From the IMG/VR virus record IMGVR_UViG_3300029305_000912: 45,975 nt of DNA, one strand, 5' to 3'. Below the pieces are notes generated by a model that did no database searches, was not told the origin of the DNA, and saw only the letters and a program-made list of their open reading frames with translations. The position numbers and the translations under genes are program-made. The DNA is from a virus. Shown piece after piece: positions 9,449-45,975 of the stretch (the stretch's first letter is position 1; every line of letters begins with the position of its first letter).

Positions 9449-9467
9449 CTTTATTCACCTGCCTTTC

Positions 9468-9647
9468 TTATTTCTTGATCTTACTTGCCTGTTCTTTTTC
9501 CGCTTCAATCTTTAGATCAATAGCGGCAATGATAAAGGCTTTTTCTTCCTGATCAAGATCCAAAAACTGTGAAGGCAAAATCCGTAGTTTGTGCAGAGCA
9601 TAGTAAGCATAATTTGCTTGACTATCCCCTGCACGAATCAGTTTTTT
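9468..9647 (-). CDS. -1 frame extension of the tail assembly chaperone. It has no ATG or GTG, and its only in-frame TTG codons are internal with no RBS, so it is read by programmed -1 frameshifting at A_AAA_AAC.
   Basis: The minus-strand sequence is GAT GAA GCA AAA AAC TGA. Slipping -1 on A AAA AAC (9641-9647) opens a 58-codon frame, KLIRAGDSQANYAYYALHKLRILPSQFLDLDQEEKAFIIAAIDLKIEAEKEQASKIKK, ending at the TAA at 9468-9470. That is 20 nt before the tape-measure ATG. Confidence 0.7.
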   Translation of the reverse strand, partial: KKLIRAGDSQANYAYYALHKLRILPSQFLDLDQEEKAFIIAAIDLKIEAEKEQASKIKK

Positions 9648-10075
9648 GCTTCATCCACCTGTTCCTGAAGGGTTTGGAATCCACTGATATTCTGTACGAA
9701 TACCATCAGATCCGTGTATTCCGCAGGATCATCCACCATTTCCTTGATCAGGTCTTCCGCGGACATAACACCATAGGAATTCTGAAGGTCAGCGTTGTTC
9801 AGATCAGGGAAAACCACCGCGGCACAAATCAATTTTGCCTGATATTTGTTCATATCCACCTTGGGACGGAACATATTGGGTTTACCTTTCACAGGAACTT
9901 CCATAGTGCAGGATTCACGAATTGCTTCATTTTCCTTTGTTGTCAGCGGCTTGATTTCCCACATCAGCGGTTCACCGTTTTCATCTGTCAGGGACTTGGT
10001 TACAGGGTGCATCACATTCTTCTTCTGAATCTTGTTCTGTTTCATGAACTTTGCGAAATTCGACATATTGCCCAT
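9638..10075 (-). CDS. XkdN-like tail assembly chaperone (zero-frame product)
   Basis: 145 aa starting MGNMSNFAKFMKQNKIQKKN...PLTTKENEAIRESC. It lies between the tail tube and tape measure genes and ends in a slippery heptamer. Confidence 0.75.
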   Translation of the reverse strand: MGNMSNFAKFMKQNKIQKKNVMHPVTKSLTDENGEPLMWEIKPLTTKENEAIRESCTMEVPVKGKPNMFRPKVDMNKYQAKLICAAVVFPDLNNADLQNSYGVMSAEDLIKEMVDDPAEYTDLMVFVQNISGFQTLQEQVDEAKN

Positions 10076-15742: not shown

Positions 15743-15816
15743 TGGTTGACACAACTGGATTTGAACCAATACCAACACATTCAAAGTGTGTTGTGCTTCC
15801 GTTACACTATGCGTCA
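15743..15816 (-). tRNA. tRNA-Gln (anticodon UUG), 74 nt with an encoded CCA
   Basis: Manual cloverleaf on the minus strand:
- acceptor TGACGCA / TGTGTCA (one G-T pair);
- D arm GTGT-AACGGAA-GCAC;
- anticodon arm ACACA-CTTTGAA-TGTGT (U33, anticodon TTG, A37);
- variable loop TGGT;
- T arm ATTGG-TTCAAAT-CCAGT;
- discriminator A, then CCA. Confidence 0.85.
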
Positions 15817-21670: not shown

Positions 21671-22082
21671 CTGAAATCACAACAGGAACCACACCTTGAA
21701 CACCAATCTTGTCTGTCAACAGTCCATAACGCTTTGCAAGTAATTCCGATGCTTTGATTCGTTCCCTTGCACCAACGCTTTTGTCAACAGATCTTGCGGA
21801 AGAATAACCATCACCCATACCTTCGACAACAATCACTTCTTCCATTTCTTCACCGCGCATGACAGAAGTCAGATACTGCATCACTTCTTCTGCGGAAGCA
21901 ATCTTTTTGGACTGCATTTTTTCAAGGCGTTCGTCAATATATGCTCGAACGTCAGGTTTCGTTAAGTTTTCAGCACCAATGACCTTTGCAGTCTTTTCCG
22001 AATAACCTGCACGAATTGCCGCCTGTGTTGCATTACAGTCAATCAAATATTCGTCACAAAATCGTTGTTGTTTTGGTGTCAC
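21648..22082 (-). CDS. terS: Terminase small subunit (Terminase_2-like HTH)
   Basis: The sequence TPKQQRFCDEYLIDCNATQAAIRAGYSEKTAKVIGAENLTKPDVRAYIDERL is a canonical TerS N-terminus. I prefer the GTG at 22082, preceded by GAAAGGGGTG. The track ORF extends to 22190 but adds an atypical 36-aa leader. Confidence 0.8.
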   Translation of the reverse strand: MTPKQQRFCDEYLIDCNATQAAIRAGYSEKTAKVIGAENLTKPDVRAYIDERLEKMQSKKIASAEEVMQYLTSVMRGEEMEEVIVVEGMGDGYSSARSVDKSVGARERIKASELLAKRYGLLTDKIGVQGVVPVVISGDDELED

Positions 22083-22308: not shown

Positions 22309-22872
22309 TCAATAGCTGAAGATTTGCTGAATGACTTCATCTGAAAACAGTCTGATCTGAAGAAGATTGATCAAACGGTTCTTGTTTCGGTTTACAGTTG
22401 AAACATCACAATCAAAGTATTCTGCAATTTCTTCACGGGACTTTCCTTCAAAGTATCGAAGACGAATCAGATCATAATATACATCGTCCTTCAGTGTATC
22501 AATTGCATTGTCAATGATACGAATAAAATTTTTAGTTGTTGCCATTGAAAATTCTATCCGTTCAATCTTTTCTTCTGCCTTTTCCATGTCGGATTTCACT
22601 TCAATGTAACCCGTATCACCTGAATAAGTCGCAACGGCACCAGACTTCTTACTCAAACCGATTTGACGGATTTCCGCAATCTGTTCTTCTTTATCCTTAA
22701 TAGCGGCTTTGAAATTATTGTAGTTATACAGTAACGTTTCAGTCTTCTGGAAAGGTGACTGTCTACCCTCTACAATCAGACTATGACGTTTTAATTCTGC
22801 AACAGCTTCTTCTGTTGCCTTTCTAACCGTATGATCAATTACTTTTAATACTTCGCCATTTAACTGTAACAC
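22309..22872 (-). CDS. Late-gene transcription regulator with a sigma-70 region-4-like C-terminal HTH
   Basis: 187 aa with a GTG start preceded by AAGGGGGT. The C-terminal sequence YYDLIRLRYFEGKSREEIAEYFDCDVSTVNRNKNRLINLL is sigma r4 / RinA-ArpU-like. It is the last gene before terS. Confidence 0.65.
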   Translation of the reverse strand: MLQLNGEVLKVIDHTVRKATEEAVAELKRHSLIVEGRQSPFQKTETLLYNYNNFKAAIKDKEEQIAEIRQIGLSKKSGAVATYSGDTGYIEVKSDMEKAEEKIERIEFSMATTKNFIRIIDNAIDTLKDDVYYDLIRLRYFEGKSREEIAEYFDCDVSTVNRNKNRLINLLQIRLFSDEVIQQIFSY

Positions 22873-22892: not shown

Positions 22893-23232
22893 TGTTCAAG
22901 GTGTTCCACGTGTTCAAGGTCTTTTCTATTACTTATATATTTTTATTTTTTATATAGTAATATAGTAATTTTTATGTTTTTATACTTACTATCTTAAAAA
23001 TATAAAGAAAATCGAAGTCACCTTGAACACCTTGAACACCGTCTGAATTTCCGCACTTTCTATATAACATAAACCGCATAAAATCAGTATTCATACGTTA
23101 TATAGAAACTTTTTGATGTGTTCAAGGTGAATTGCTCCACCTTGAACAGCACCTTGAACTTTTACGTCACCTTGAACGCAAAAATCACTTTAGACCTTAA
23201 ACCAACAAAATTCACCTTGAACAACCTTGAAC
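22893..23232. repeat. Iteron array A: at least 10 copies of TGTTCAAGGTG / CACCTTGAACA around a ~97-bp A/T core, plus a 12-bp perfect inverted repeat
   Basis: - Forward copies: 22894-22903, 22912-22921 (variant), 23120-23129.
- Reverse copies: 23019-23028, 23028-23037, 23138-23147, 23150-23159, 23168-23177, 23213-23222, 23223-23232 (variant).
- Inverted repeat: tttctatataac (23057-23068) with gttatatagaaa (23097-23108). Confidence 0.9.
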
Positions 23233-23444: not shown

Positions 23445-23747
23445 TCATTTACCCCACCATTCCAATGGTTCTTTGTGTAATTCAAGACAATAAGCATCAA
23501 AATACTTTGCCCAAGGACGGAACTTGTTCAAGTTGTACTGACCTGTAGAACCATATTTATCTGCTATGGTCAAAAGAATCTTACTTGGTTCAGTAGGTAA
23601 CCACCCATTTGGAATATTTTTCAGTAATAATTCTTCATTGATGTTTTCGTTTGTGATACACACATCAGAAAAATTACAATGGATTTCAATGTGCTTTATA
23701 GGTTCATGTAAACCATAGTGTCTGTGCATTAACTGTATATACATCAT
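23445..23747 (-). CDS. Hypothetical protein
   Basis: 100 aa, coupled to the nrdG stop by a 4-nt overlap. Confidence 0.5.
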   Translation of the reverse strand: MMYIQLMHRHYGLHEPIKHIEIHCNFSDVCITNENINEELLLKNIPNGWLPTEPSKILLTIADKYGSTGQYNLNKFRPWAKYFDAYCLELHKEPLEWWGK

Positions 23748-24244
23748 TCCATCAGATCCTTTCTTAAAACAATAGAATCACTTTCAAGGGACTTTTTCAC
23801 ATCAATGATTCGTTGGTTGGACGAACCGCGGAATTTAAGTCTTGGATCCTTCAGTTCTTCCACAAACTTTCCATCAACCAGAACGTCAATGTATTTCATG
23901 ATTGGGAATCGTTTGACTTCTTCCCACTGATATCCCGTATAACACCAGATGTCCTTGTTGGGAAAGTAGGTCTTGAATATGAAACACAAAGATGTCATAT
24001 GATAAATGTTATTCACATCTAACGGTTCACCGCCAAGAAGGGAAAGACCTGTGATGTAATCTTTTTCACACAATCTAAGGATGTCACTTCCCGTTCTTGG
24101 TGTGAACGGTTTCCCTGCATCATAGTTCCACAGTTCCGCATTGAAGCAACCTTTGCAGTGATGTGGACAACCGCTGACAAACAATGAAACACGAACGCCT
24201 TCACCGTTGGCAACATCACACGGTTTTATTTTTCCATAGTTCAT
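23744..24244 (-). CDS. nrdG: Anaerobic ribonucleoside-triphosphate reductase activating protein (radical SAM)
   Basis: 166 aa starting MNYGKIKPCDVANGEGVRVSLFVSGCPHHCKGCFN, with the CxxxCxxC cluster and the typical NrdG N-terminus. Confidence 0.9.
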   Translation of the reverse strand: MNYGKIKPCDVANGEGVRVSLFVSGCPHHCKGCFNAELWNYDAGKPFTPRTGSDILRLCEKDYITGLSLLGGEPLDVNNIYHMTSLCFIFKTYFPNKDIWCYTGYQWEEVKRFPIMKYIDVLVDGKFVEELKDPRLKFRGSSNQRIIDVKKSLESDSIVLRKDLME

Positions 24245-24381
24245 GATCTACACCTTCCAATCCAGATTGCATCCCCAATCGAAAATAACGCCCATATAGT
24301 CAAATATTCATTGGTTATAATTTCAGGTGGTATTTTACCAGTTGCCGCCATCAGAAAAACAATACATAATATTAAACTCAT
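24241..24381 (-). CDS. Small membrane protein (46 aa, below the ORF-track cutoff)
   Basis: Translated by hand as MSLILCIVFLMAATGKIPPEIITNEYLTIWALFSIGDAIWIGRCRS. The stop overlaps the nrdG ATG (ATGA). Confidence 0.4.
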   Translation of the reverse strand: MSLILCIVFLMAATGKIPPEIITNEYLTIWALFSIGDAIWIGRCRS

Positions 24382-24387
24382 ATAGAA

Positions 24388-24537
24388 TTACCTCTTAAAC
24401 AAAGATTTAATACTATGTTTTAGTGCAAGCCATATCTTATGTTTTGTACTTGGATATTCAAACATTTTCGGTTTACACTTGGGACATATACGATCACCAC
24501 CGTCTGTTTGTTTACCACAAAAGATGCATCTGGTCAT
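24388..24537 (-). CDS. Small zinc-ribbon protein (49 aa, below the ORF-track cutoff)
   Basis: Translated by hand as MTRCIFCGKQTDGGDRICPKCKPKMFEYPSTKHKIWLALKHSIKSLFKR, with two CxxC pairs. Confidence 0.45.
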   Translation of the reverse strand: MTRCIFCGKQTDGGDRICPKCKPKMFEYPSTKHKIWLALKHSIKSLFKR

Positions 24538-24540
24538 TTT

Positions 24541-24858
24541 TTAATCACCTTCCTGTTCCAACCCAAAGGTTTCATAAAGTTCATCTTTGCACTGTTTCAG
24601 TGCTTCATCAACAATCCTGCGTACACGAACACCACGGTTGGAAAACCATTTCTTTTTGAACGCTTCCTTTGCTTTCAGATAGGTTTCTTTGCAGGTATCA
24701 CCAGAAGCGTACCAGTCAAATTCATGGATCAGGTCAAGTACGTCCCAAACCAGTTCAGAAATTTCCCTATCTTCAAAGACGTTTGCAGGTCTGTCAGTCC
24801 ATCCAAAGATTTCATTCTTCAGTTGACTGTCAACATAATCAAAGCGTCCACCTGACAT
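24541..24858 (-). CDS. Hypothetical phage protein
   Basis: 105 aa starting MSGGRFDYVDSQLKNEIFGW.... Its start codon shares 1 nt with the upstream gene's stop codon. Confidence 0.5.
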   Translation of the reverse strand: MSGGRFDYVDSQLKNEIFGWTDRPANVFEDREISELVWDVLDLIHEFDWYASGDTCKETYLKAKEAFKKKWFSNRGVRVRRIVDEALKQCKDELYETFGLEQEGD

Positions 24859-25163
24859 TACAGTTCACCGCCCGTTGTGTTCATCCTCGCACCACATTCT
24901 GGGCAATGTTTCAATCTTGTTCCGTCTTTTCGTGGGTCATAGTGAAGTTCCCATTCTTTTCCGCAATTTGAACACTTCCAGATTTGGAAATACCAATCGG
25001 ATTTGTTTGAAAATATCCATTTCCCCTGCGGAGGCAGACTTTCTAGACTAATGGTAGGTGTTGTGTAAATTTTATTCCGAACTGACGCTTTTGCAGAGTC
25101 CGTCCAGAAAATTTCCTCGTTGATTCTTTTTATAACCTCATCTGCATCAATTAGCCGCATCAC
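24858..25163 (-). CDS. Hypothetical protein with a C-terminal zinc ribbon
   Basis: 101 aa with CSNCGKEW...HCPECGARM (two CxxC pairs). Confidence 0.5.
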   Translation of the reverse strand: MMRLIDADEVIKRINEEIFWTDSAKASVRNKIYTTPTISLESLPPQGKWIFSNKSDWYFQIWKCSNCGKEWELHYDPRKDGTRLKHCPECGARMNTTGGEL

Positions 25164-25540
25164 ACTTCACCGCCCTTGATTAAAGAAACCAGTTTTATAA
25201 GATCATAAAACCTGCGCGGATTCAAACCAGTCTTTTCTTCCACTCTTGCAATGTGGTATTTGATGGTGTTTCTGTGATATGACATAGCAAGTGCAGTTTT
25301 GGAATCCGTCATATCATTTTCAGCAAATGCAAGGATAACATTTTTGTCTTCTTTCGTTAGTTTCGAAATTGTTGACGCATCACAGTTACCTTCAAGGAAC
25401 TTCGAAATTACCACTTCATAATGACAAATCTTTTCTTTGATATTACGAATCACTTCATCGGGAACACCACGATTCAGTTCATGTTCCAGATTTGCTTTGT
25501 GCTTTGTAAGTTGCTTTTCCATGAATTCCAACGTTGTCAT
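25160..25540 (-). CDS. PucR-type C-terminal HTH DNA-binding protein
   Basis: 126 aa. The sequence YHRNTIKYHIARVEEKTGLNPRRFYDLIKL resembles the PucR/CdaR HTH signature (hrNTlrYRlkkieeltGl...). Confidence 0.55.
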   Translation of the reverse strand: MTTLEFMEKQLTKHKANLEHELNRGVPDEVIRNIKEKICHYEVVISKFLEGNCDASTISKLTKEDKNVILAFAENDMTDSKTALAMSYHRNTIKYHIARVEEKTGLNPRRFYDLIKLVSLIKGGEV

Positions 25541-25554
25541 AAAATCACCATCCT

Positions 25555-27672
25555 TTACAGGTGCATCACACGGGATCTGATTTCCTTCGTCTTTCCTTCG
25601 TTCCAGAAGTTTTCACCCAAGTAACCGCAGGTTCTACGGGTCACATTCATCTTGGAATGATCCTTGTTATGACAAACGGGGCATTCCCATTCAAGGTCAT
25701 CGTTGACAATGATTTCACCGTCATAACCACATTCATGGCAGAAGTCACACTTGGTATTGAATTCTGCATACTGAATGTTGTCATAGATGAATTTCACCAC
25801 ATCTTCCAACGCCTTCAGATTATGGTTCATGTTCGGAATTTCAGAATAGGAAATACAACCACCGCTTGACAGCTTTTGAAATTTTGATTCAAACAGGAAC
25901 TTCTTGAATGTGTCGATTTCTTCACGGACATCCACATGATAAGAATTCGTATAATATCCCTTGTCGGTTACATCAGGAATATCACCGAATCTTTCACGGT
26001 CAATCTTTGCGAATCGGTAACACAGGGATTCGGCAGGTGTTCCGTAAAGTGCAAAACCAATGTTGGTTTCTTCGCGCCATCTTAAAACAGTACGCTTCAG
26101 ATATTCCATGACAGCCAGTGCAAACTGTTCACCTTCAGGATGTGTATGAGATACACCACACATCAGTTTTGTCATCTCATAAATTCCGATATAACCAAGA
26201 CTGATGGACGAATAACCACCGAACAACAGTGGATCAATAACTTCACCCTTTGGAAGTCTTGCAATCGCACCATACTGCCAATGGATTGGCGAAATGTCAG
26301 AAGGTGTTCCAAGAAGTGCTTTATGTCTGCACATCAACGCTTCCTTACACAGTTCCAGTCTTTCATCAAGCAGTTCCCAGAACTTCGATCTGTTATCACC
26401 TGCAAGAATCGCAATCTGTGGAAGATTGATACTGACAACACCCTGATTGAATCTACCTTCAAACTTGTAGTTACCATCAGCATCCTTCCAAGGTGCCAAG
26501 AAGGATCTGCATCCCATAGGACTGAAGACGTTTCCTTCATAGTTTTCAGACATCTTCTTTTCAGAAATATAATCAGGGTACATACGCTTTGCAGAACACT
26601 GAACCGCAATCTTTGTCAGATAGTCATATTTGCCGCCCTTCAGACAGTTTTCTTCTGTCAGGACATAAACCAGTTTCGGGAATGCAGGTGTGATGTAAAC
26701 ACCCTTTTCATTCTTGATTCCATGCATCCGCTGACGAAGGATTTCTTCAATGATCATTGCATTTTCTTCTTTGTATGGATCATCCTTACGCAGATACATA
26801 AAGATGGTTACAAAAGGACTTTGACCGTTGGTAGTCATCAGGGTGTTGATCTGATACTGAATTGTTTGCACACCTGACTTGACTTCTTCATGAATACGGT
26901 CTTCCAGAAGTTCACCCGTGTAACCCTTTGCCTTGAATTTATCAATGGATTTACGCAGATACTTTCCAAGGTGTACTGTGTCAACGGACTGACCGCCATA
27001 CTGACAGGAAGCAACGAATGCAATGATTTGTGTCATGACGGTGCAAGCGACCTGAAAAGATTTGGGACTTTCAATCATCTTTCCATTCATCACGGTACCG
27101 TTGTCCAACATATCACCGATGTTGATCAGGCAACAGTTATGAATTGGCTGAAGGAAATAATCTGCATCATGGAAATGAAGAACACCTTCGTCATGTGCTT
27201 TGGAAATATGATCAGGAAGAAGAATTCTGCGTGTGATATCACGGGACACGATACCTGCGATATAATCACGTTGTGTACTTGCCATCTTGGTGTTTTTATT
27301 ACTGTTTTCTTCTGCCATTTCCTTATTCTGATTGCGGATCAGCTTCAGGATAGATTCATCAGTGGTGTTGGACTTACGCACCATAGAACGTTTTTCACGG
27401 TAAAGGATATATGCTTTTGCAGTCTGATGATAACCCAAACCCATCAAATAATTTTCCACAGTATCCTGTATGGTTTCCACATGAACTTCATTATCATCCA
27501 AATTCATTTGAATGGTAGCGGCAATAAAATTCATGTCTTCCATTGGGATATGATCAACGCGGACTTCTGCATTTGCCTTCTGAATTGCATTAATAATTTT
27601 GTTGGGATCGAAATCAACTATCGAACCATCACGTTTAATAACTTTTTGAATCACACAAACCCCTTCTTTCAT
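25555..27672 (-). CDS. nrdD: Anaerobic ribonucleoside-triphosphate reductase
   Basis: 705 aa with an ATP-cone-like N-terminus (VIKRDGSIVDFDPNKIINAI). The C-terminus has a zinc site (CHECGYDG...CPVCHN) and the glycyl-radical motif RRTCGYLG. Confidence 0.95.
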   Translation of the reverse strand: MKEGVCVIQKVIKRDGSIVDFDPNKIINAIQKANAEVRVDHIPMEDMNFIAATIQMNLDDNEVHVETIQDTVENYLMGLGYHQTAKAYILYREKRSMVRKSNTTDESILKLIRNQNKEMAEENSNKNTKMASTQRDYIAGIVSRDITRRILLPDHISKAHDEGVLHFHDADYFLQPIHNCCLINIGDMLDNGTVMNGKMIESPKSFQVACTVMTQIIAFVASCQYGGQSVDTVHLGKYLRKSIDKFKAKGYTGELLEDRIHEEVKSGVQTIQYQINTLMTTNGQSPFVTIFMYLRKDDPYKEENAMIIEEILRQRMHGIKNEKGVYITPAFPKLVYVLTEENCLKGGKYDYLTKIAVQCSAKRMYPDYISEKKMSENYEGNVFSPMGCRSFLAPWKDADGNYKFEGRFNQGVVSINLPQIAILAGDNRSKFWELLDERLELCKEALMCRHKALLGTPSDISPIHWQYGAIARLPKGEVIDPLLFGGYSSISLGYIGIYEMTKLMCGVSHTHPEGEQFALAVMEYLKRTVLRWREETNIGFALYGTPAESLCYRFAKIDRERFGDIPDVTDKGYYTNSYHVDVREEIDTFKKFLFESKFQKLSSGGCISYSEIPNMNHNLKALEDVVKFIYDNIQYAEFNTKCDFCHECGYDGEIIVNDDLEWECPVCHNKDHSKMNVTRRTCGYLGENFWNEGKTKEIRSRVMHL

Positions 27673-28001
27673 TTATAAACTTTTCCTGATTCTTTGTGTC
27701 GGATCTGAATGCGTCCGATTAATTCAAACCCTGCAAGGTCAAGAATGCTTTTGATGACGGTAACAACCGTGTGTGCGTTTTCGTCCACATGGTTTGCTCT
27801 ACGTTCCGCATTCTGTATTTTCTTTACGACTTCATATGCAGTTGGATCAGGGCAACCACTGCCATTCAGCCAAGGTTTTCCGTTATTCCCCATAGACAAG
27901 ATCATCAAAAATAATGCCAATTGTGTTTTTGAAATCGTCCAGAAGGGGTCTTGATACTTCCAACATCTGCGGATGTGCTTTGCCTGTGCTGTTGCAAGCA
28001 C
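27669..28001 (-). CDS. Hypothetical protein (start uncertain; possibly the internal ATG at 27893)
   Basis: The ORF overlaps the thyX 3' end by more than 100 nt if started at 28001. An internal start gives MGNNGKPWLNGSGCPDPTAYEVVKK.... The stop overlaps the nrdD ATG. Confidence 0.4.
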   Translation of the reverse strand: MLATAQAKHIRRCWKYQDPFWTISKTQLALFLMILSMGNNGKPWLNGSGCPDPTAYEVVKKIQNAERRANHVDENAHTVVTVIKSILDLAGFELIGRIQIRHKESGKVYK

Positions 28002-28851
28002 GAAGATTAAAGAAATGTTTCCATTCCTTACAGTTTGCAGTCATAATCACTTCTGTCTTCAGACTGTTTGGAAGAACAGTCCGCGCTTTTTCAGGTGTCA
28101 CATCGAATTCCATCATGGTCATATAGGTGTTTTCACATTCTTCCATGGCGGCTTTCCACAACACCCATTCAGGGGAACCGAAAGTGAAAAATTCAGGAAT
28201 AATGAAGGTCAACTGACTTCCAAATTTGTCCTTGCTATAATTGCAATATCGTGTGGATTCCTGTGCAAAACTTGCAGGACGATGACGAACCAGTTCATGA
28301 CTAACACCACGATCAACCATAAACCGAACTGTAATATCAGAATGTGTCAGAAATTCTTCTTCAGACTTCAAATCACTGATTCCAACAGGACGAATGGAAC
28401 CAATGTTTTTTACATAAAAAATTTCATCTTGGTATTCAGGGAACAAAATTGGATTTTCTTTGATGAATTCTTTAAAACAAACAGGAATTGCATACCATCC
28501 AATCATACTGCGGAATAAGTCACGCCAAGCGCGAACATTACCAGACATCAAAATTCTTTCTTCAGCAGTAAAGCGAATAAATAAAGGAAAACCACAATCA
28601 TGAGATAAAAACCGAATCGCGTCTTTCATCCAATGGTATACACCATAATCAATTTCGAAGCAGAAGGAAGCGTGTTCCAACATTGCTTCATGTCCGCGCT
28701 TGATCAGATTGGAAACAAACTTTGGTGCAGAATCATCTGTGATGTTTTCCGTTGACTTGTAGCAGGTTCTTCCCACCAGTTCAATTTTCTTCAGGACATC
28801 TTTTCCAATATCAATGTCCATGATTTCCGCATAGGGTTTGATTGCTATCAT
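27883..28851 (-). CDS. thyX: FAD-dependent thymidylate synthase ThyX
   Basis: 322 aa with the ThyX signature RHRxxSxxxxSxR present as LVRHRPASFAQESTRY. Confidence 0.9.
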   Translation of the reverse strand: MIAIKPYAEIMDIDIGKDVLKKIELVGRTCYKSTENITDDSAPKFVSNLIKRGHEAMLEHASFCFEIDYGVYHWMKDAIRFLSHDCGFPLFIRFTAEERILMSGNVRAWRDLFRSMIGWYAIPVCFKEFIKENPILFPEYQDEIFYVKNIGSIRPVGISDLKSEEEFLTHSDITVRFMVDRGVSHELVRHRPASFAQESTRYCNYSKDKFGSQLTFIIPEFFTFGSPEWVLWKAAMEECENTYMTMMEFDVTPEKARTVLPNSLKTEVIMTANCKEWKHFFNLRACNSTGKAHPQMLEVSRPLLDDFKNTIGIIFDDLVYGE

Positions 28852-29156
28852 TTACTTTCACCATCCTTCAAAACGTCTTCAATAGCGGTTTTGACTGCTT
28901 TGGTTTTTATCATCTTTTCTGCAAGTACTTTGCTTGCAATCTGAATGATTTCGTCCTTGTGAGAATCCAACCAATCCATAATCAACTGTTCTGCTACATA
29001 ATTAAGTTTGTTTTCACCATAATAATTTGTTGAGAAAATGCACTGTTCAACATTTTTCTGAATATTTTCTGTAATGGTCTTTTCAGCATTTTTCTGAATT
29101 TGTTTGGCAATCGCATCATCATCAATAGTAATACCAAAGTGAATGATATGTTCCAT
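28848..29156 (-). CDS. Hypothetical protein
   Basis: The ATG at 29156 is preceded by GGAAAGGA and lies 4 nt after the dut stop. It encodes 102 aa, MEHIIHFGITIDDDAIAKQI.... Confidence 0.5.
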   Translation of the reverse strand: MEHIIHFGITIDDDAIAKQIQKNAEKTITENIQKNVEQCIFSTNYYGENKLNYVAEQLIMDWLDSHKDEIIQIASKVLAEKMIKTKAVKTAIEDVLKDGESK

Positions 29157-29160
29157 AAAA

Positions 29161-29622
29161 TCAATCCTTTCCAGTGGATCCGAATCCACCACGGTCTTCA
29201 TCTTCCATACAATCCACTTCCGTGAATTTCAGTTCAGACATTTTCGGCATAATACGGAACTGACAGATTCGATCACCCTTGAAAATGGTTGTGGACTTCA
29301 TAGCTAACGCAGGGAATCCCCAAACGTCATGTTCACCACAATAGGATTCATCAATGACACCCATGGAATTGGTCATCAGGATTCCCCATCTGCGGAATGT
29401 ACTGGAACGGGGCAGAACGTGCGCTTCATAACCTTCGGGAAGTTTCATGGAAACACCAAGGGAAATAACTTTGTAATCCCCTGCATCCATGTCCACACGT
29501 TCCGCGGCATGAAGATCAATCCAATCACCAACAGGGATCTTTTCAATCTTCCCAAGGTCTTTGTCATGGTACTTGATTTTGATTTCAAGTACATCAGTTT
29601 TCTTTTTCTGTGCCATTTTCAA
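29161..29622 (-). CDS. dut: dUTP diphosphatase (trimeric dUTPase)
   Basis: 153 aa with motifs LPRSS and GVIDESYCGE, and a C-terminal glycine-rich segment RGGFGSTG. Confidence 0.9.
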   Translation of the reverse strand: MKMAQKKKTDVLEIKIKYHDKDLGKIEKIPVGDWIDLHAAERVDMDAGDYKVISLGVSMKLPEGYEAHVLPRSSTFRRWGILMTNSMGVIDESYCGEHDVWGFPALAMKSTTIFKGDRICQFRIMPKMSELKFTEVDCMEDEDRGGFGSTGKD

Positions 29623-29938: not shown

Positions 29939-31843
29939 TTACCCTTTCACAAAAATCCTGCATTTCTTACCGTTCACCCTACGGTCAACGATTTTGAAAT
30001 TAAAGTGTTTCTTGACCTGCTTTGAAAATTCACCGTTGGACAAAGGTTGAAGACTGTTAGAAAGACACCATTCGTTGTATCTGCGATATACAACACTGGT
30101 CACTTCATCTTCAATTTTGATTTCATCGTTTTCCGCTTCACGGAAGAAACCGATGATTGGATTGTTGGATTCTTCATATTCAATCAGTTCTTCCTGCATT
30201 GCTTCATTGGTTGTATACTGTCTGGATTCCAATACACGTTTCAAACCCTGTAAACCGATTTGAATCATATATTCCATGGATTCCTGACACTTCAGGTCAT
30301 CACCAATGAACGGTTTGTAATCAGGGGAATCAGGTGTGAACCTTGCGTTGAATGGAACAATTGCCAATCTTCGAAGAATTGCACCGCTGTCCCTGCCTTT
30401 ACCGATACGTGGAATACTGTTTGCACTGAAAATCAGTTTGCAGAACGGATCAAAATTGAATTTTGGTTGACCTTTATGTTCTGCGTCAATGGACTGACCT
30501 GTTACAATCTTCTTGAATTCGGCAGTGTCAACTACAAATTCATCAGAAATATCATCACCGATGTTTGCAATCTTACCGAACATCATGACTGTGGAAAATC
30601 TGTCATTCAGCTTCTTCAGATCCAGAACAGAAAGGTTTTGTCTACCAAGCAACGTTTTCACCATGTCCAAGAATGTTGATTTACCGTTTGCACCTGTTCC
30701 CGTCAGAATGAACGCCCTACCACCTGCAAGTGCGTTGGAACGATAGAAACAGGAACCAACCATTTCTTCAAGTAGCATTCTAACCGCTTCATCATGACAG
30801 GAAATGTTGTTCATGATTTGATCAGTCAGTTCGAAGTATGCATTTGGGTTCCAGTCCCACGGGATCATATTGGTGATGACATAATCAGGACTGAATGGAA
30901 GGAAATCATCATTGATAATGTCATAGATTCCGTTTCGGAATGCAATGAAGTTTGGTGGTGAAGGTTGTGTTTCTTCCCGAATCAGAATGTCAAGATACGC
31001 AAGAACTTCCTGACGTTTTGTTTTGTTTAACTGCGGAAGATGATGCAACATCACCGCTTCAATTTCCCTGTATCCGCTGATATAGATTCCGTTTTGATAC
31101 AGGTGCAACTGATCATTGATTCTGATAATGTGGTGATTGTTTTTCAAAAATACCGCGAACTTATCAAACAGGAACGTCTTACCCATGAAGAACACAGGTT
31201 TCTGAAATGCTTCATCACGCAGAATGATGTTCAATTCATCTTCAGGAAGTGGATTCTTCAACACGAAACTGTTGATGATTCGGATTGTTTCCCGTGCTTC
31301 TTCAACCGTGAAATCAGCAGATTGCAAAGTCAGAATGTAATTGAATAGACTTTGATTTCTTCCGTCACCTGCGTCCATATTCAGAAATTCTGTGGATCCG
31401 CGCACTGGAACCAACCACTTTGGAAGTTCTTCATATTCATGACCTTCTTCAATATCCCATTCAATGAAGCGTTCCTTGCCTTCAAACTTCAGGATTTCAT
31501 AAGAATTTTTCAGACCAACCTTGATGTCAGCAGTCAGACCGCAACCAAGATTTGCGTGTGTGAAACACTTCTGAATCTTGCCGTTTGTGTTCTTGAACAG
31601 GAAGTGTTTTCCGCGTGATGTCTGATAGACGCGGCAGTTCAGTTGCAGGTGTTCCACGATATCCATCAGAAGTTCCGCTTGATCCCCATCATCAATGTCG
31701 ATTAGTACCGCATCATTTGCAAGAATTCCTGCATATTCATCAAGGGACTGAACCTGTTCCAAGGTCTTGAAATCGGTACGGTCTTTGAATTTTTCTGTGC
31801 ATTTTTTATTTTTTGTTTTAACGTACCCTTTGAAAAAGGTCAT
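29939..31843 (-). CDS. Bifunctional primase-helicase: N-terminal AEP (prim-pol) domain plus a P4-alpha/D5-type SF3 helicase
   Basis: 634 aa. The AEP motifs are VLIDIDDGD and TSRGKHFLF. The Walker A is ILTGTGANGKSTF, and the Walker B-like motif is IANIGDDISDE. Confidence 0.85.
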   Translation of the reverse strand: MTFFKGYVKTKNKKCTEKFKDRTDFKTLEQVQSLDEYAGILANDAVLIDIDDGDQAELLMDIVEHLQLNCRVYQTSRGKHFLFKNTNGKIQKCFTHANLGCGLTADIKVGLKNSYEILKFEGKERFIEWDIEEGHEYEELPKWLVPVRGSTEFLNMDAGDGRNQSLFNYILTLQSADFTVEEARETIRIINSFVLKNPLPEDELNIILRDEAFQKPVFFMGKTFLFDKFAVFLKNNHHIIRINDQLHLYQNGIYISGYREIEAVMLHHLPQLNKTKRQEVLAYLDILIREETQPSPPNFIAFRNGIYDIINDDFLPFSPDYVITNMIPWDWNPNAYFELTDQIMNNISCHDEAVRMLLEEMVGSCFYRSNALAGGRAFILTGTGANGKSTFLDMVKTLLGRQNLSVLDLKKLNDRFSTVMMFGKIANIGDDISDEFVVDTAEFKKIVTGQSIDAEHKGQPKFNFDPFCKLIFSANSIPRIGKGRDSGAILRRLAIVPFNARFTPDSPDYKPFIGDDLKCQESMEYMIQIGLQGLKRVLESRQYTTNEAMQEELIEYEESNNPIIGFFREAENDEIKIEDEVTSVVYRRYNEWCLSNSLQPLSNGEFSKQVKKHFNFKIVDRRVNGKKCRIFVKG

Positions 31844-40073: not shown

Positions 40074-40274
40074 TTAACCAAAAAAAATATCTACCGCATC
40101 ATCATTGGTCAGACCAAGTTCTTCTTTGATCTTCTGGGCATCTTCAATCGTGATATTTTCACATTTGTTCAACTTTCGGTACAATGTGGACTTATTAACA
40201 CCAATCTTTGCGGCAAGTGTTTCCACATTCAAACCTTTTTCAACCATTTTGCCTTTCAGCTTCAAAATATTCAT
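40074..40274 (-). CDS. Cro-like XRE-family HTH protein
   Basis: The ATG at 40274 is preceded by AGAAAGGAA. The 66-aa product is MNILKLKGKMVEKGLNVETLAAKIGVNKSTLYRKLNKCENITIEDAQKIKEELGL. The gene is divergent from the repressor gene. Confidence 0.7.
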   Translation of the reverse strand: MNILKLKGKMVEKGLNVETLAAKIGVNKSTLYRKLNKCENITIEDAQKIKEELGLTNDDAVDIFFG

Positions 40275-40297
40275 ACTGACGTTCCTTTCTATGTATT

Positions 40298-40314
40298 GTC
40301 GCATCTGGTGCGAC
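40298..40314. promoter_or_regulatory. Operator palindrome GTCGCA-N5-TGCGAC at the predicted start of the rightward-to-leftward early transcript
   Basis: Read directly as gtcgcatctggtgcgac. It lies 8 nt downstream of the -10 box of the candidate early promoter. Confidence 0.55.
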
Positions 40315-40321
40315 TACTTGA

Positions 40322-40349
40322 ATTATACCTGTTTTTTCTCGAAAGTCAA
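40322..40349 (-). promoter_or_regulatory. Candidate early (cro-side) sigma-A promoter
   Basis: The minus strand reads TTGACT (40349..40344), then 16 nt, then TATAAT (40327..40322). Confidence 0.6.
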
Positions 40350-40399
40350 TATATGATTCGCATAAAAGCGATTATTTACAATTTGTTCATATTTTATTG

Positions 40400-40428
40400 T
40401 TGTAAATTTGCGACTATTTTATTATAAT
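40400..40428 (+). promoter_or_regulatory. Candidate repressor-maintenance promoter
   Basis: TTGTAA (40400-40405), then 17 nt, then TATAAT (40423-40428). A TGCGAC half-site (40409-40414) lies in the spacer. Confidence 0.5.
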
Positions 40429-40454
40429 ATGAAGGAACAAAGGTGGTGACAAAA

Positions 40455-40793
40455 ATGACAGTAGGACAACGGATCAAAGAAAGACGAAAAGAAATGAAAA
40501 TTTCTGCGGACGAACTTGGAAAAAGAATCGGTAAAAACAGGGCAACTGTTTTTAGATATGAAAATGGTGATATTGAAAAATTACCACTTGATATTCTGGA
40601 ACCTATCGCAAACGCATTGGATACCACACCACAGTTTCTTATGGGATGGGAAGACGAAAAGAAAACCACTGCTGAAAATAGCAGTGGTATAAGTGAAGCT
40701 AAACAGAAGTTATTTGATCTTGCAAATGAATGTTCGGATGAAGAAGTATCAAGACTTCTTCAGATGATGGAACTGTTTTTAGGAAAGAAATAA
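40455..40793 (+). CDS. cI-like XRE-family repressor
   Basis: The ATG at 40455 is preceded by AAAGGTGGTGA. The product begins MTVGQRIKERRKEMKISADELGKRIGKNRATVFRYENGDIEKLPLDILEPIANALDTTPQFLMGW, which is a classic HTH_XRE. The tail is short and helical. Confidence 0.8.
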   Translation: MTVGQRIKERRKEMKISADELGKRIGKNRATVFRYENGDIEKLPLDILEPIANALDTTPQFLMGWEDEKKTTAENSSGISEAKQKLFDLANECSDEEVSRLLQMMELFLGKK

Positions 40794-41123: not shown

Positions 41124-41555
41124 ATGTGGTTAAATAATCTTCAAGAATTAAAGAAAAAGACAGGACTGACTGCAAAACAGATAGCAGAAAAAACATCGTT
41201 GCCAGAAAGGACTGTTGCTCGTATCTTTTCTGGTGAAACCGATCATCCATATGCAGACACACTTGACCTTATCGTCAAGGCTCTTGGTTATGATTTAGGT
41301 GACATCTTTGCTGACACAGGTGCAATTGTTGCCACAACAGAACTTGTTGAAATAAAAGAAAGTGTTGATGTTGTTGAAGCGGAACGTGATTTGACCATTG
41401 TTGAAAATGATATGTTGAAGGCAAAAGTTGCGGCTTTGTCAACAGAAATAGAACTTTTGAAGAAGGAACTGCAACACAAAGACGAATTACTTGCATTGCA
41501 TAATTATTATAAATCTGTAATCAGTGGAATGTCTAAAGACGCAAGTTCAAGGTGA
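41124..41555 (+). CDS. Second XRE-type HTH protein with a C-terminal coiled coil (start at ATG 41124 or TTG 41115)
   Basis: The HTH is LQELKKKTGLTAKQIAEKTSLPERTVARIFSGETDHPYADTLDLIVKALG. The heptad-like helix is DMLKAKVAALSTEIELLKKELQHKDELL. The RBS AAAGGA is at 41104-41109. Confidence 0.65.
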   Translation: MWLNNLQELKKKTGLTAKQIAEKTSLPERTVARIFSGETDHPYADTLDLIVKALGYDLGDIFADTGAIVATTELVEIKESVDVVEAERDLTIVENDMLKAKVAALSTEIELLKKELQHKDELLALHNYYKSVISGMSKDASSR

Positions 41556-41760
41556 AACCCTTGCAAACACTGGATTGTTCAAGGTGTCCTTGGTGTTCAA
41601 GGTGTTTCTATTATTATATATTTTTTATTTCAAAAAAAGAAATATTGAACCTGAATGTGACTATGCATCTATAAAAAATAAAAAAATATATAAATATATA
41701 AAATACCTTGAACACGTTGAACAGGTGGAACAAAATCATCTGTTGACCGTGTTCAAGGTG
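41545..41760. repeat. Iteron array B: 4 perfect-core and 2 variant copies of TGTTCAAGGTG around a ~99-bp A/T core, immediately upstream of the integrase gene
   Basis: - Forward copies: 41545-41554, 41577-41586, 41595-41604, 41751-41760.
- Reverse variants: 41704-41713 (TACCTTGAAC) and 41713-41722 (CACGTTGAAC).
- The left ~60 bp aligns with 22893-22955. Confidence 0.9.
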
Positions 41761-41782
41761 GACACAGAAAGGATGTGCAAAA

Positions 41783-43321
41783 ATGGAAGTATATATCATG
41801 TACCTGCGAAAATCGCAGATGGACAGGGATTTTGAAGAATTGTCTGTGGAAGAAACATTGAAGCGTCATGAAGTAACACTGACGGAATTCTGTGAAAAAA
41901 ACAATCTGATGGTGGATGTGGTTCTTAAGGAAGTTGTTTCAGGTGAAGCGTTATCATCCAGACCACAAATGATGAAGGTATTGGAACTGGTCAATACGGG
42001 GAAATATGCAGGTGTTATTTGTATGGATATTGACCGCCTTTCCCGTGGATCATCCGTTGATTCTGGTTATATTATGCAGGTTTTGCAACTTAATGATTGT
42101 AAGATTGTTACACCAAATAAAACGTATGACCTTTTAAATGAAACGGATGAACAGTTTGCAGATATGAAGTTCATGTTCTCCCGTTACGAACTTTCTACAA
42201 TCCGCAAACGTCTAATTGCAGGACGTGATACGTCAGTTAAAGAAGGACGTTTTATGGGTTCTACTGCACCATATGGTTATAAAATTGTTAAACTCAAAGG
42301 TGAAAAAGGAAATACGTTAGAAGTTATTCCTGAAGAAGCACAGGTTGTCCGTATGATTTTTGATTGGTATACACAGGACGGTCTTGGTATAGGTCAGATT
42401 GCAGACAAATTGACCAATCTTCACATCAAACCAAGAAAAGTGAAAGAATGGTCACCAGAAGTTGTACGAAAGATGTTACTAAATGAACATTACATTGGAA
42501 AATTACCATGGAAAAAACACGTTGTGGGTAAGAAGTTTGTTGATGGTCAACTGACTAAGAAAAGATGTGCAAACGAAAATTATGAAATCCATGATGGTAG
42601 ACAGGAACCTATCATATCAGAAGAACAATTTGAATTAGCACAGCAGGTACGTCAAAGCAACAACACACGTCCTGTAAAAGTAGATTTTGAAATAGCAAAT
42701 CCACTTGGTGGATTGTTACATTGTGGACACTGCGGATCCAAAATGAAAAGGGTGACACCATCAATAAAGAATCCAAATGCAAAACCACGTTTCAAATGTA
42801 GTAGATCAAAAAGATGTGGGTGTAAATCTCATTATTTAGATGAAGTTGAAAAAGCTATTGTAAATGAAATGAAAGAATGGTTGGCAGGATATATCATAGA
42901 ATTAGAACAAAATAATGATCATAAAGATGACGGATTGGAATTGTCTTTGGAACTATTGAAAAATCGTCTGGAAGATTTGTTTGAACAACAAGATGCCATT
43001 TGTGAACTGCATGAAAAGAAGGAATATTCAGATAGATTATTCCAACGAAGAAATGCCGCAATTGAAGCTGAAATTGATCAAGTGGAATCGGACATTGATG
43101 AACTGGAACAGAAACTATCTGAACAGAAAGAAGAAGCTGACATCAAATCAAGTATCATTCCAACATCACAATACCTGTTGGACAATTACGATAATCTAAC
43201 ACCAAAAGAAAAAAATGATATTTGGAAGTTGATTTTACACAAAGTAGATTATACAAAAACTGAAGTAGGAAAAGAATTTAACATCACAATTTATCCGAAA
43301 CTATCTAATAAACCCTTATAA
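41783..43321 (+). CDS. Large serine recombinase (phage integrase)
   Basis: 512 aa. The N-terminal resolvase-type catalytic segment is MEVYIMYLRKSQMD (Ser in RKS). The recombinase domain is followed by a zinc-ribbon motif (CGHCGSKM...CSRSKRCGC) and a long coiled coil. Confidence 0.85.
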   Translation: MEVYIMYLRKSQMDRDFEELSVEETLKRHEVTLTEFCEKNNLMVDVVLKEVVSGEALSSRPQMMKVLELVNTGKYAGVICMDIDRLSRGSSVDSGYIMQVLQLNDCKIVTPNKTYDLLNETDEQFADMKFMFSRYELSTIRKRLIAGRDTSVKEGRFMGSTAPYGYKIVKLKGEKGNTLEVIPEEAQVVRMIFDWYTQDGLGIGQIADKLTNLHIKPRKVKEWSPEVVRKMLLNEHYIGKLPWKKHVVGKKFVDGQLTKKRCANENYEIHDGRQEPIISEEQFELAQQVRQSNNTRPVKVDFEIANPLGGLLHCGHCGSKMKRVTPSIKNPNAKPRFKCSRSKRCGCKSHYLDEVEKAIVNEMKEWLAGYIIELEQNNDHKDDGLELSLELLKNRLEDLFEQQDAICELHEKKEYSDRLFQRRNAAIEAEIDQVESDIDELEQKLSEQKEEADIKSSIIPTSQYLLDNYDNLTPKEKNDIWKLILHKVDYTKTEVGKEFNITIYPKLSNKPL

Positions 43322-43349
43322 ATCAACGGGTTATATATTTTTAGTTTCA

Positions 43350-43397
43350 ATGGGTATCATCACACTTCACATGTGTGGTCGGTGTTATGATACCCAT
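43350..43397. promoter_or_regulatory. 48-bp imperfect palindrome downstream of the integrase gene (attP candidate or RNA hairpin)
   Basis: The sequence is atgggtatcatcacac ttcacatgtgtggtc ggtgttatgatacccat. The outer arms match at 15 of 16 positions and the inner part is imperfect. No T-run follows it. Confidence 0.35.
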
Positions 43398-43407
43398 AAT
43401 CACAGAA

Positions 43408-43440
43408 GGAACTGAACTTCGGTTCGGTTCCTTTTTATTT
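43408..43440 (+). terminator. Intrinsic terminator of the integrase transcript
   Basis: The stem pairs ggaactgaac with gttcggttcc around a ttcg loop, followed by tttttattt. Confidence 0.8.
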
Positions 43441-43489
43441 GTATAAAATATATAACACACTGGTTATAACTTTGTGAATTATGCGAATA

Positions 43490-43546
43490 TCTTTCATATA
43501 ACCCATGTGTTATAATATTGACATGATGAAAACACACCTAATATGT
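43490..43546 (+). promoter_or_regulatory. Candidate promoter(s) of the moron cassette
   Basis: There is an extended -10, TGtTATAAT (43508-43516). It overlaps a TTGACA (43518-43523) with TAATAT/ATATGT 15-17 nt downstream. Confidence 0.4.
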
Positions 43547-45240: not shown

Positions 45241-45966
45241 TTACAGTAAATTTAAACGATCAAGAACAGCGGCAATCTGTTCACGGGTAACAGGACTTTT
45301 CGGTTTGGTACCGTCTAAGATACCTTTCTTCTTTGCCTTGTCCCATGCAGACTTTGCCCAAGAATCAACGGATTTCTTTTCCTTTGCCGCTTCGTATTCT
45401 TCAATGATTTTGATGACTTCTTCTTTGGTCATATCATCTTCCCCTTCCTGTATTTTGTTCCAGAATTCAGATTTCCACCGCGCATCATCTACCCAATAAG
45501 CAGGGCATTTCTTACCCGTAACATCAAAGTGTCGGATAATATGATTTGCAGGAATGTTGTATTTCTGCATTAGATGACGGGTCAGTTCCAATGCATTCTG
45601 AATGGTTTTTTCTGACGGATAGACAACACCGTTCTTCACATCATCACATAATTCTATGGAAATACTGTTTGCATTTACACATTTTCCGTAGAATTTTGCA
45701 CCCTTTGTATTAGGATATTTATTGCCGCCAACCGACCATGCAATGTAATTGTCAGGTACAGAATTAACGATATAATAACTATCCACAAAATAATGCGCTG
45801 ACGCTTTCACAATGTTATTGGCAAAATACTTGCCGTTGTTCTTTGCAGTGTCCCCATTATTACTGGTAAAGTGGATGACGATCCATTCAATTATGTCAGG
45901 ATTTCTGATACAACCATAATTACTTTTGTTGGCAAGATTCGTTTTAATCGGTACCATCTGCATCAC
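45241..45966 (-). CDS. Endolysin: N-acetylmuramoyl-L-alanine amidase (Amidase_2/PGRP fold) with a short SLH-like C-terminal segment
   Basis: 241 aa. The amidase-type sequences are IVIHFTSNNG...ASAHYFVD...SISIELC...IIRHFDVTGKKCP. The C-terminal sequence is SWAKSAWDKAKKKGILDGTKPKSPVTREQIAAVLDRL. Confidence 0.85.
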   Translation of the reverse strand: MMQMVPIKTNLANKSNYGCIRNPDIIEWIVIHFTSNNGDTAKNNGKYFANNIVKASAHYFVDSYYIVNSVPDNYIAWSVGGNKYPNTKGAKFYGKCVNANSISIELCDDVKNGVVYPSEKTIQNALELTRHLMQKYNIPANHIIRHFDVTGKKCPAYWVDDARWKSEFWNKIQEGEDDMTKEEVIKIIEEYEAAKEKKSVDSWAKSAWDKAKKKGILDGTKPKSPVTREQIAAVLDRLNLL

Positions 45967-45975
45967 AACCTTCTG
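45849..45975. repeat. Second copy of the 127-bp terminal repeat (identical to 1-127)
   Basis: Read directly. Confidence 0.95.

Follow-up and report, generated by a model that had tools for sequence, protein, structure and literature searches.

Two iteron arrays in a temperate phage genome as probable origin modules of its primase-helicase

The stretch of DNA analysed here, called the window, is the complete IMG/VR virus record IMGVR_UViG_3300029305_000912 (45,975 nt), to which all window coordinates refer. Bases 1-127 are repeated at 45849-45975 as an assembly overlap, and the window thus represents a circularly closed genome of about 45.85 kb. Two clusters of one short repeat were located in it, i.e. 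array A, an intergenic region that separates the last early gene from the late transcription regulator, and array B, between the second helix-turn-helix (HTH) gene and a gene for a large serine integrase (int). The arrays are probably two copies of one origin module, of the type described for Staphylococcus aureus pathogenicity islands (SaPIs) and phage P4, that belongs to the phage's own primase-helicase. The arrays and the genes to which they relate are the following.

22894-23232: array A, 10 iterons, candidate origin module proximal to the late regulator
22894, 22912, 23120, plus strand: iterons of array A
23019, 23028, 23138, 23150, 23168, 23213, 23223, minus strand: iterons of array A
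22922-23018: core of array A, 97 bp, 88% A+T
41545-41760: array B, 6 iterons, candidate origin-type module proximal to the integrase
41545, 41577, 41595, 41751, plus strand: exact GTTCAAGGTG copies of array B
41704, 41713, minus strand: one-mismatch copies of array B
41605-41703: core of array B, 99 bp, 87% A+T, predicted DNA-unwinding region
22309-22872, minus strand: late transcription regulator, 187 aa, phrog_36, Sigma70_r4_2, GTG start at 22872, first gene after array A
29939-31843, minus strand: primase-helicase, 634 aa
41058-41555, plus strand: second HTH gene (XRE-type), 165 aa, TGA stop at 41553-41555
41783-43321, plus strand: large serine integrase, 512 aa, ATG at 41783, first gene after array B

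With at most one mismatch, the motif GTTCAAGGTG occurred 27 times in the window against an expectation of 4.21 ± 2.05, a count reached in none of 100 shuffles, and the 8-mer GTTCAAGG occurred 22 times (1.86 expected). The two clusters hold 16 of the 27 matches, ten in array A and six in array B. The six copies of array B lie exactly at the positions and in the orientations given by the sequence-only reading, an earlier note made from the letters of the window, and the repeat sites behave as the iterons for which it had taken them. The module that it described, with two forward copies, an A+T core (99 bp in array B) and two reverse copies, was recognised in both arrays. Ranked by A+T content in stretches of 97 bp, the two cores come first in the genome (0.88 each), ahead of a third stretch at 0.78. 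A lone exact copy far from both arrays (21692-21701, minus strand, within terS) may be due to chance. A scan for the DNA pattern GTTCAAGGTG-N6-10-GTTCAAGGT returned mostly unrelated contigs, presumed, uninspected, to carry coding repeats of Gly-X-Y type, and its result was not used.

The first copy of array B overlaps the TGA stop codon of the second HTH gene and the last one ends 22 nt before the integrase ATG; the nearest copy of array A is 21 nt from the GTG of the late regulator, and both spacings hold as originally noted. Between 22893-22955 and 41576-41638, 51 of 63 positions are identical, non-motif bases included, and the similarity therefore extends beyond the motif, as had been estimated by eye. 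Alignment of array A to array B scored 59 in the inverted and 54 in the direct orientation, and in each half of the module an iteron pair precedes an edge of similar sequence, TTTTCT...TATATATTTTT. The module is thus a quasi-palindrome, for which a direct-repeat orientation has no meaning, and the description of the arrays as direct repeats was abandoned. The arrays are 18.7 kb apart and bracket the early/replication region, each abutting the start of int or of the late regulator, as the same reading had pointed out. Compared with its counterpart in the relative L138 (related loci are designated by L numbers), array B has kept its iterons and diverged in its spacers, which indicates constraint on the array.

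Among close relatives of the late regulator, an array of the same architecture was found upstream of the regulator gene in 16 out of 16 cases, with an invariant GTTCAAG core and flanks that vary by lineage (GGTG, GGTA, GATA, GATG). A search anchored on the primase-helicase gathered 80 loci, and 44 of these, the window included, had one array downstream of the primase gene. In the 44 loci the array lies a few kb downstream of the primase, with opposed iteron sets around a core of typically 87-119 bp and 79-91% A+T, and the iterons are lineage-specific and related to each other (AACCGTAAC, AACTGTAAC, AACCGCTACC, AACCGATACC, TGTAACT, TTACTACACTT, CACCTTGAAC). The array adjoins the gene of the phrog_36/DUF1492 regulator in all 44 loci, its end usually being 15-35 bp before the regulator start; in the TGTAACT group it sits between the regulator gene and terS. 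The distance from array to primase is 1-3 kb in gut phages. The relatives are prophages of Bacillota, including Lachnospiraceae, Erysipelotrichaceae and Bacilli. One of them, a prophage of class B (L444, iteron AACCGTAAC), is carried by MGYG-HGUT-00092, a Lachnospiraceae host that is in culture. A scan anchored on TerL gave 558 matches, TerL being too widely conserved, and did not return L225 and L229.

Small elements resembling phage-inducible chromosomal islands (PICIs), i.e. L218 (193-5090), L216, L437 and L441, have the gene order int, repressor-like gene, homologous primase-helicase and iteron array. In L216, L218 and L437 the array starts directly after the stop codon of the primase-helicase gene, as it does in SaPIs. 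Since these elements carry both the primase-helicase and the array, satellites and full-size phages share a replication module.

The primase-helicase contains the Pfam domains D5_N, superfamily 3 (SF3) helicase DUF5906 and, at its C-terminus, Pox_D5. The sole match of known structure obtained by phmmer was 7OLA/7OM0 (E = 4e-40, residues 243-614), which is PriRep5 of SaPI5, and the aligned stretch includes the C-terminal domain region of that protein. Against the P4 alpha protein, BLASTP returned an E-value of 5e-12 over the D5_N/SF3 core only (246-567 vs 356-679), the C-terminal domains remaining unaligned. The C-terminal part of the protein is predicted to fold as a winged helix.

29942-30202, minus strand: predicted C-terminal winged helix, about residues 548-634

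In the AlphaFold model of the last 154 residues, the order of elements is H-beta-H-H-beta-hairpin (H, helix) with pLDDT of 84-91 over the last 70 residues. Top ranks in Foldseek were held by winged helices, namely the RFX DNA-binding domain on DNA (prob 1.00, TMt 0.62), Orc1/Cdc6 and the origin recognition complex on origin DNA, and weak Pfam matches to RFX and Cdc6_C covered residues 579-627. The Rep proteins of SaPIs recognise iterons through a C-terminal winged helix; in their origins, an A+T-rich centre is flanked on each side by two or more iterons, the two sides pointing in opposite directions, and PriRep5 deprived of its C-terminal domain does not bind its origin (PMC9371898).

Across the 44 related loci, the sequence of the repeat tracks only the C-terminal wing of the primase-helicase. 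In this protein a conserved helix (FSKQINKRL) is followed by a variable beta-hairpin, which tracks the iteron class in every class. When 11 phages of class B (AACCGTAAC) were compared with 8 of class C (AACTGTAAC) in 17 orthologous groups of open reading frames (ORFs), residues that separate the two classes perfectly were met in the primase-helicase only, at positions 623 and 625 of 632. These are residues 625 and 627 of the window protein, which the model places at the tip of the hairpin. The wing of an AACCGTAAC-class phage reads TKVGGKSIRIF. None of the seven multi-locus groups with identical last 20 or 40 primase residues had mixed iteron classes (0/7). A natural domain swap was observed between L161 and L162, which are identical in the helicase core (251-500), the regulator C-terminus and the TerS N-terminus, and differ in the primase wing and the iteron (AACCGATACC vs AACCGTAAC). 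Two candidate origins of 88% overall identity differ at the same position in nearly all iteron copies, a concerted change that demands a corresponding one in the binding protein. On these comparisons of sequence, the primase-helicase is predicted to be the initiator that binds the iterons via its C-terminal wing, residues 620-631 (DRRVNGKKCRIF) being the predicted determinant of specificity.

Three further kinds of protein encoded near the arrays were considered as readers of the repeat, and the genes concerned, in addition to those listed above, are the following.

40074-40304, minus strand: Cro-like gene, divergent from the CI-like gene
40443-40793, plus strand: CI-like repressor, 116 aa
21648-22190: terS, next after the late regulator

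The sigma-region-4-like late regulator (phrog_36/DUF1492) could use the repeats as its sites for autoregulation and for control of int, and its gene stands beside the array in 44/44 loci; the position of the array in the TGTAACT group, between regulator gene and terS, is also the expected place for late-activator sites. This is nevertheless very doubtful, as 100% identical regulators were found with iterons of both class B and class C, two of the three groups of identical regulators being mixed, and the regulator had no class-discriminating residue. Arrays beside int and in PICI-like elements, in turn, have no regulator as neighbour. In phiPaco and Shimadzu, which encode distant homologues of the regulator, no array lies upstream of the gene, an absence that is uninformative on the repeats themselves.

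A lysogeny repressor (the CI-like, Cro-like or second HTH protein) might likewise own the repeats as operators, in the manner of dispersed operator or stoperator sites, and array B is indeed located in the lysogeny module with its first copy over the stop codon of an HTH gene. No copy was present in the cI/cro intergenic region (40305-40442). Array B is not tied to the gene of the second HTH protein, homologues of which at 80% identity were encoded in motif-free loci, one of them directly abutting a different integrase, and the same arrays accompany unrelated repressors of XRE-type and LexA/S24-type. Operators of a repressor are hence extremely unlikely, the comparison having already largely refuted them.

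Small terminase proteins bind repeated sites around a bent, A+T-rich region, as in the pac of SPP1 and the cosB of lambda. Array A, just upstream of the packaging genes, could by analogy be the pac or cos recognition site of TerS and array B a fortuitous copy of it. Very little credence is given to this explanation: identical TerS proteins occur with different iteron classes (AACCGTAAC as well as AACTGTAAC), TerS families vary (Terminase_2 vs Phage_terminase) with the array architecture unchanged, array B is kept beside int in many genomes, and in PICI-like elements the arrays abut the primase gene. The HTH or other regulatory binder implied by the sequence-only reading was thus not borne out, the repeat covarying with the C-terminus of the primase-helicase and not with regulators.

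An int-proximal and a regulator-proximal array, both with the genome's own iteron variant, were found together in five genomes with three iteron types and with integrases of both the serine and the tyrosine family.

Window: serine integrase, iteron tGTTCAAGGTG, 18.7 kb between the arrays
IMG/VR 3300024272_000136: serine integrase, iteron tGTTCAAGGTG
3300025575_000006: tyrosine integrase, iteron GGTTCAAGGT, about 17.3 kb between the arrays
2501799907_000002: tyrosine integrase, iteron GGTTCAAG(G/A)T, about 13.7 kb between the arrays
L439, a prophage in a metagenome-assembled genome of uncultured Bacilli: tyrosine integrase, iteron GTGACACAG, about 17 kb between the arrays

The primase wing of L439 differs correspondingly (RKRINGEVRRIF). 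Int-proximal arrays were also present in L225/L226, L229, L347, L357, L400, L420 and L438, where only the int side was within reach; in L229 (iteron GTATAAGATGA) the int start codon is inside an iteron, and in several lineages array and int are set apart by a small ORF or by about 700 bp. The contigs 3300021431_000034 and 3300022601_000062 have GGTTCAAGGT and GTATAAGATGA, respectively, as their own iterons. The pair is old, its conservation extends over lineages that have unrelated integrases, and its two members evolve in concert. Absence of the pairing in relatives, a refuting outcome according to the sequence-only reading, was not observed: four genomes beyond the window have it. Of the claim that array B is a diverged duplicate of array A, the part that makes them versions of one module stands, and the notion of a recent duplication private to this genome does not, in view of the age and spread of the pair. 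A third mini-cluster of three CTTGAAC copies was observed in L142 (contig 3300024272_000136) at 8552-8660, about 1.5 kb upstream of array A; the matching region of the window has one degenerate copy only (23526).

Compared with known systems, the likeness to SaPIs and PICIs includes a homologous initiator with a predicted C-terminal winged helix, 6-12 short iterons (10 in array A and 6 in array B, at least two per core side in opposite orientation) and, in the PICI-like relatives, an array directly after the primase-helicase gene. The window differs in being a temperate phage of 45.85 kb and not a satellite, in the length of its iterons (9-11 bp vs 5-6 bp in SaPIs), in having its arrays 6.7 and 9.7 kb from the initiator gene and not adjoining it, and in its two modules per genome, compared with one described in SaPIs.

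In the P4 record X51522, an 8-bp "type 1 repeat" forms two clusters, with copies in either orientation: crr (4291-4590), which has attP/int on one side and the 3′-end of the gene for the alpha primase-helicase on the other, and ori (9086-9809) between the early operon and the late sid operon. This bracket around the replication operon, formed by a cluster next to int/attP and a second one where the early and late regions meet, is also that of the window; P4 too has a primase-helicase as initiator, with distant homology over the SF3 core, and each crr unit consists of two forward repeats, a T-rich spacer and reverse repeats. The differences are that crr comprises two direct repeats of 120 bp whose spacers measure about 35 bp, whereas array B consists of one module only, its core being 99 bp long, that the clusters are 4.7 kb apart in P4 and 13.7-18.7 kb apart here, that crr is annotated as required in cis whereas most relatives of the window seem to manage with one array within reach, and that the C-terminal domains of the initiators are not aligned by BLASTP. 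Both the P4 type 1 repeat TGTTCACC (L436, X51522, 4314-4330 and 9310-9413) and the window iteron TGTTCAAGGTG begin with TGTTCA, which may be coincidence, as the initiators are distantly related and their C-terminal domains unaligned. The earlier statement that no described phage system has this layout is consequently no longer tenable, the module matching the SaPI origin (PMC9371898) and the two-site bracket matching crr and ori of P4 (X51522).

The origins of the SV40 large T antigen and papillomavirus E1 also have inverted short initiator sites beside A+T-rich DNA, at which two SF3 hexamers assemble. With these there is resemblance only, since the origin-binding domain has a different fold and the origins are much more compact.

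The proposed mechanism builds on the established anatomy and conservation of the arrays, the homology with PriRep5 and P4 alpha, the predicted winged-helix fold, the covariation of iteron and wing and the concerted evolution; from these we infer that the iterons are bound, that the core melts, that origins fire and what array B does in particular. A self-loading SF3 primase-helicase would recognise the short iterons through its winged-helix C-terminal domain, and the opposed iteron sets would place helicase hexamers at both sides of the A+T-rich core (about 100 bp), where the duplex would melt and two hexamers be loaded. Array A, situated where the replication module meets the late module, would be the origin ancestral to the family and shared by all of it. 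Array B would bind the same protein as a second array, retained by temperate members between int and the repressor gene(s); its function would be that of a further origin or that of a cis-acting element of replication comparable to the crr of P4, so that the pair of arrays would bracket the early/replication region.

The position of the arrays also suggests a role in transcription. If they were mainly transcriptional switches, a bound protein, the primase-helicase or another one, would block or license the transcription and translation of int or of the late regulator, whose genes start 16-35 nt further downstream, and so time the expression of the decision genes to replication. In the window, 21-22 nt lie between the iterons and either start codon, in most relatives the distance to the regulator start is 15-35 nt, the int start codon of L229 lies within an iteron, adjacency of array and regulator (44/44) survives a rearrangement, and int-proximal arrays recur with serine and tyrosine integrases alike. 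On the other hand, scans for sigma-70 consensus promoters and for terminators around both arrays gave counts equal to the shuffled expectation, with no convincing promoter in either core. The small ORF or the about 700 bp between array and int in several lineages, the array of PICI-like relatives directly after the primase gene and without int or regulator as neighbours, and the quasi-palindrome with its 100-bp A+T core, which is origin-like and not operator-like, all speak against switches as the main function, and that explanation is considered rather improbable. It is compatible with the origin model as a second function. That the iteron modules double as replication-coupled switches of int and of the late activator is accordingly a conceivable, though still unlikely, addition. 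If true, occupancy, melting or firing by the primase-helicase could gate the expression of int and of the late genes, excision/integration and the late programme would be tied to the state of replication, and the pairing would be a regulatory architecture beyond a bipartite origin.

Several observations weigh against an origin module read by the primase-helicase, which is still held to be the likely function of both arrays. Neither array of the window adjoins the primase gene: 6.7 kb lie between the end of the gene and array A, on its downstream side, and 9.7 kb between its start and array B, on the upstream side. The 44/44 adjacency of array and regulator and the location of array B beside int hint at a transcriptional role which the origin model does not explain. 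In 42 of the 44 relatives, no second cluster was found within ±10 kb of the primase, and the second array is thus not universal and not required for replication in the family. The Foldseek E-values were weak (0.04 or higher), by which the fold class alone is supported. Wing and iteron are not related by a single-residue code either, since the wing tip of class D1 is that of one class C member, from which it differs a few residues upstream. The cumulative GC skew has its minimum at the cI/cro divergence and gave no origin signal in the window genome; it follows the direction of transcription and is therefore uninformative on origins.

A second motif, independent of the iteron class, was identified in the arrays.

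41556-41562, plus strand: AACCCTT, part of GAAACCCTTGCAAA, second motif

Usually in the form GAAACCCTTG, it lies among the iterons in 26 of the 44 related arrays (L138, L121, L189, L225 and L163 included), often as an inverted pair on the outer flanks, with a density of 2.5 per kb within arrays and 0.36 per kb outside. It may be the site of a second, conserved factor. An AACACCG cluster upstream of the primase in L167 (2562-2835), at first taken for a second array, was rejected as a coding tandem repeat: within a 318-aa ORF (2242-3198), 15-bp tandem repeats (GGGGATTGCAACACC-like) encode pentapeptide repeats of an early protein and are unrelated to iterons. Clusters of AACACCG like that of L167, which alone was inspected, are present in about 25 gut-phage loci, and AGGTTTG clusters, assumed to be similar coding repeats, in others.

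In the window, the bracketed early/replication genes are transcribed from the minus strand, from 40304 down to 23246, and encode the Cro-like protein, SNF2 helicase, exonuclease/Sak4, family-A DNA polymerase, primase-helicase, dUTPase, ThyX, NrdD and NrdG. The lysogeny genes on the plus strand are the CI-like gene, the second HTH gene and the large serine integrase. The late genes, again on the minus strand, run from 22872 through position 1 to about 43510, with the regulator, TerS and TerL at the beginning and the endolysin last.

45241-45966: endolysin, end of the late operon, which wraps through position 1

A block of nucleotide metabolism (23744-29622), with NrdG, NrdD, ThyX, dUTPase and a PucR-type HTH protein (25160-25540), separates the primase gene from array A, and it looks inserted between initiator gene and origin, as the array of gut relatives is only 1-3 kb from the primase. 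The non-coding region 43322-43509, which follows the integrase gene and separates it from the end of the late operon, is likely the attP region and contains a strong terminator-like hairpin (43404-43435). A single tRNA gene (15746-15816, minus strand, Rfam 63.8 bits) is located in the late region, and the Rfam scan of the window returned nothing beyond it. Megablast of half of the window against deposited phages gave no match.

The origin module of SaPI type is already known, and the two-site layout has its precedent in P4. What is new is the module in a large family of full-size temperate phages of Bacillota, the conserved placement of its two copies directly upstream of the late regulator and of int, whatever the integrase family, and the pattern of specificity from wing to iteron that emerges from the compared sequences. 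In the literature searched, with incomplete coverage of older subscription papers, no description of these new elements was found.

For the biology of these phages, the candidate modules assign origins and an initiator to a large uncultured family of temperate phages and PICI-like elements in Bacillota of gut and rumen, and would extend the SaPI-type origin with its self-loading helicase from satellites to full-size phages. The family further offers a natural table of specificity between the wing of a winged helix and the iteron sequence, a domain swap included. The modules are also candidate minimal replicons for vectors in Lachnospiraceae and their relatives. The P4-like layout of two sites recurs here in unrelated Gram-positive phages, with serine or tyrosine integrase, which raises the question of why a second initiator-binding array is kept beside int.

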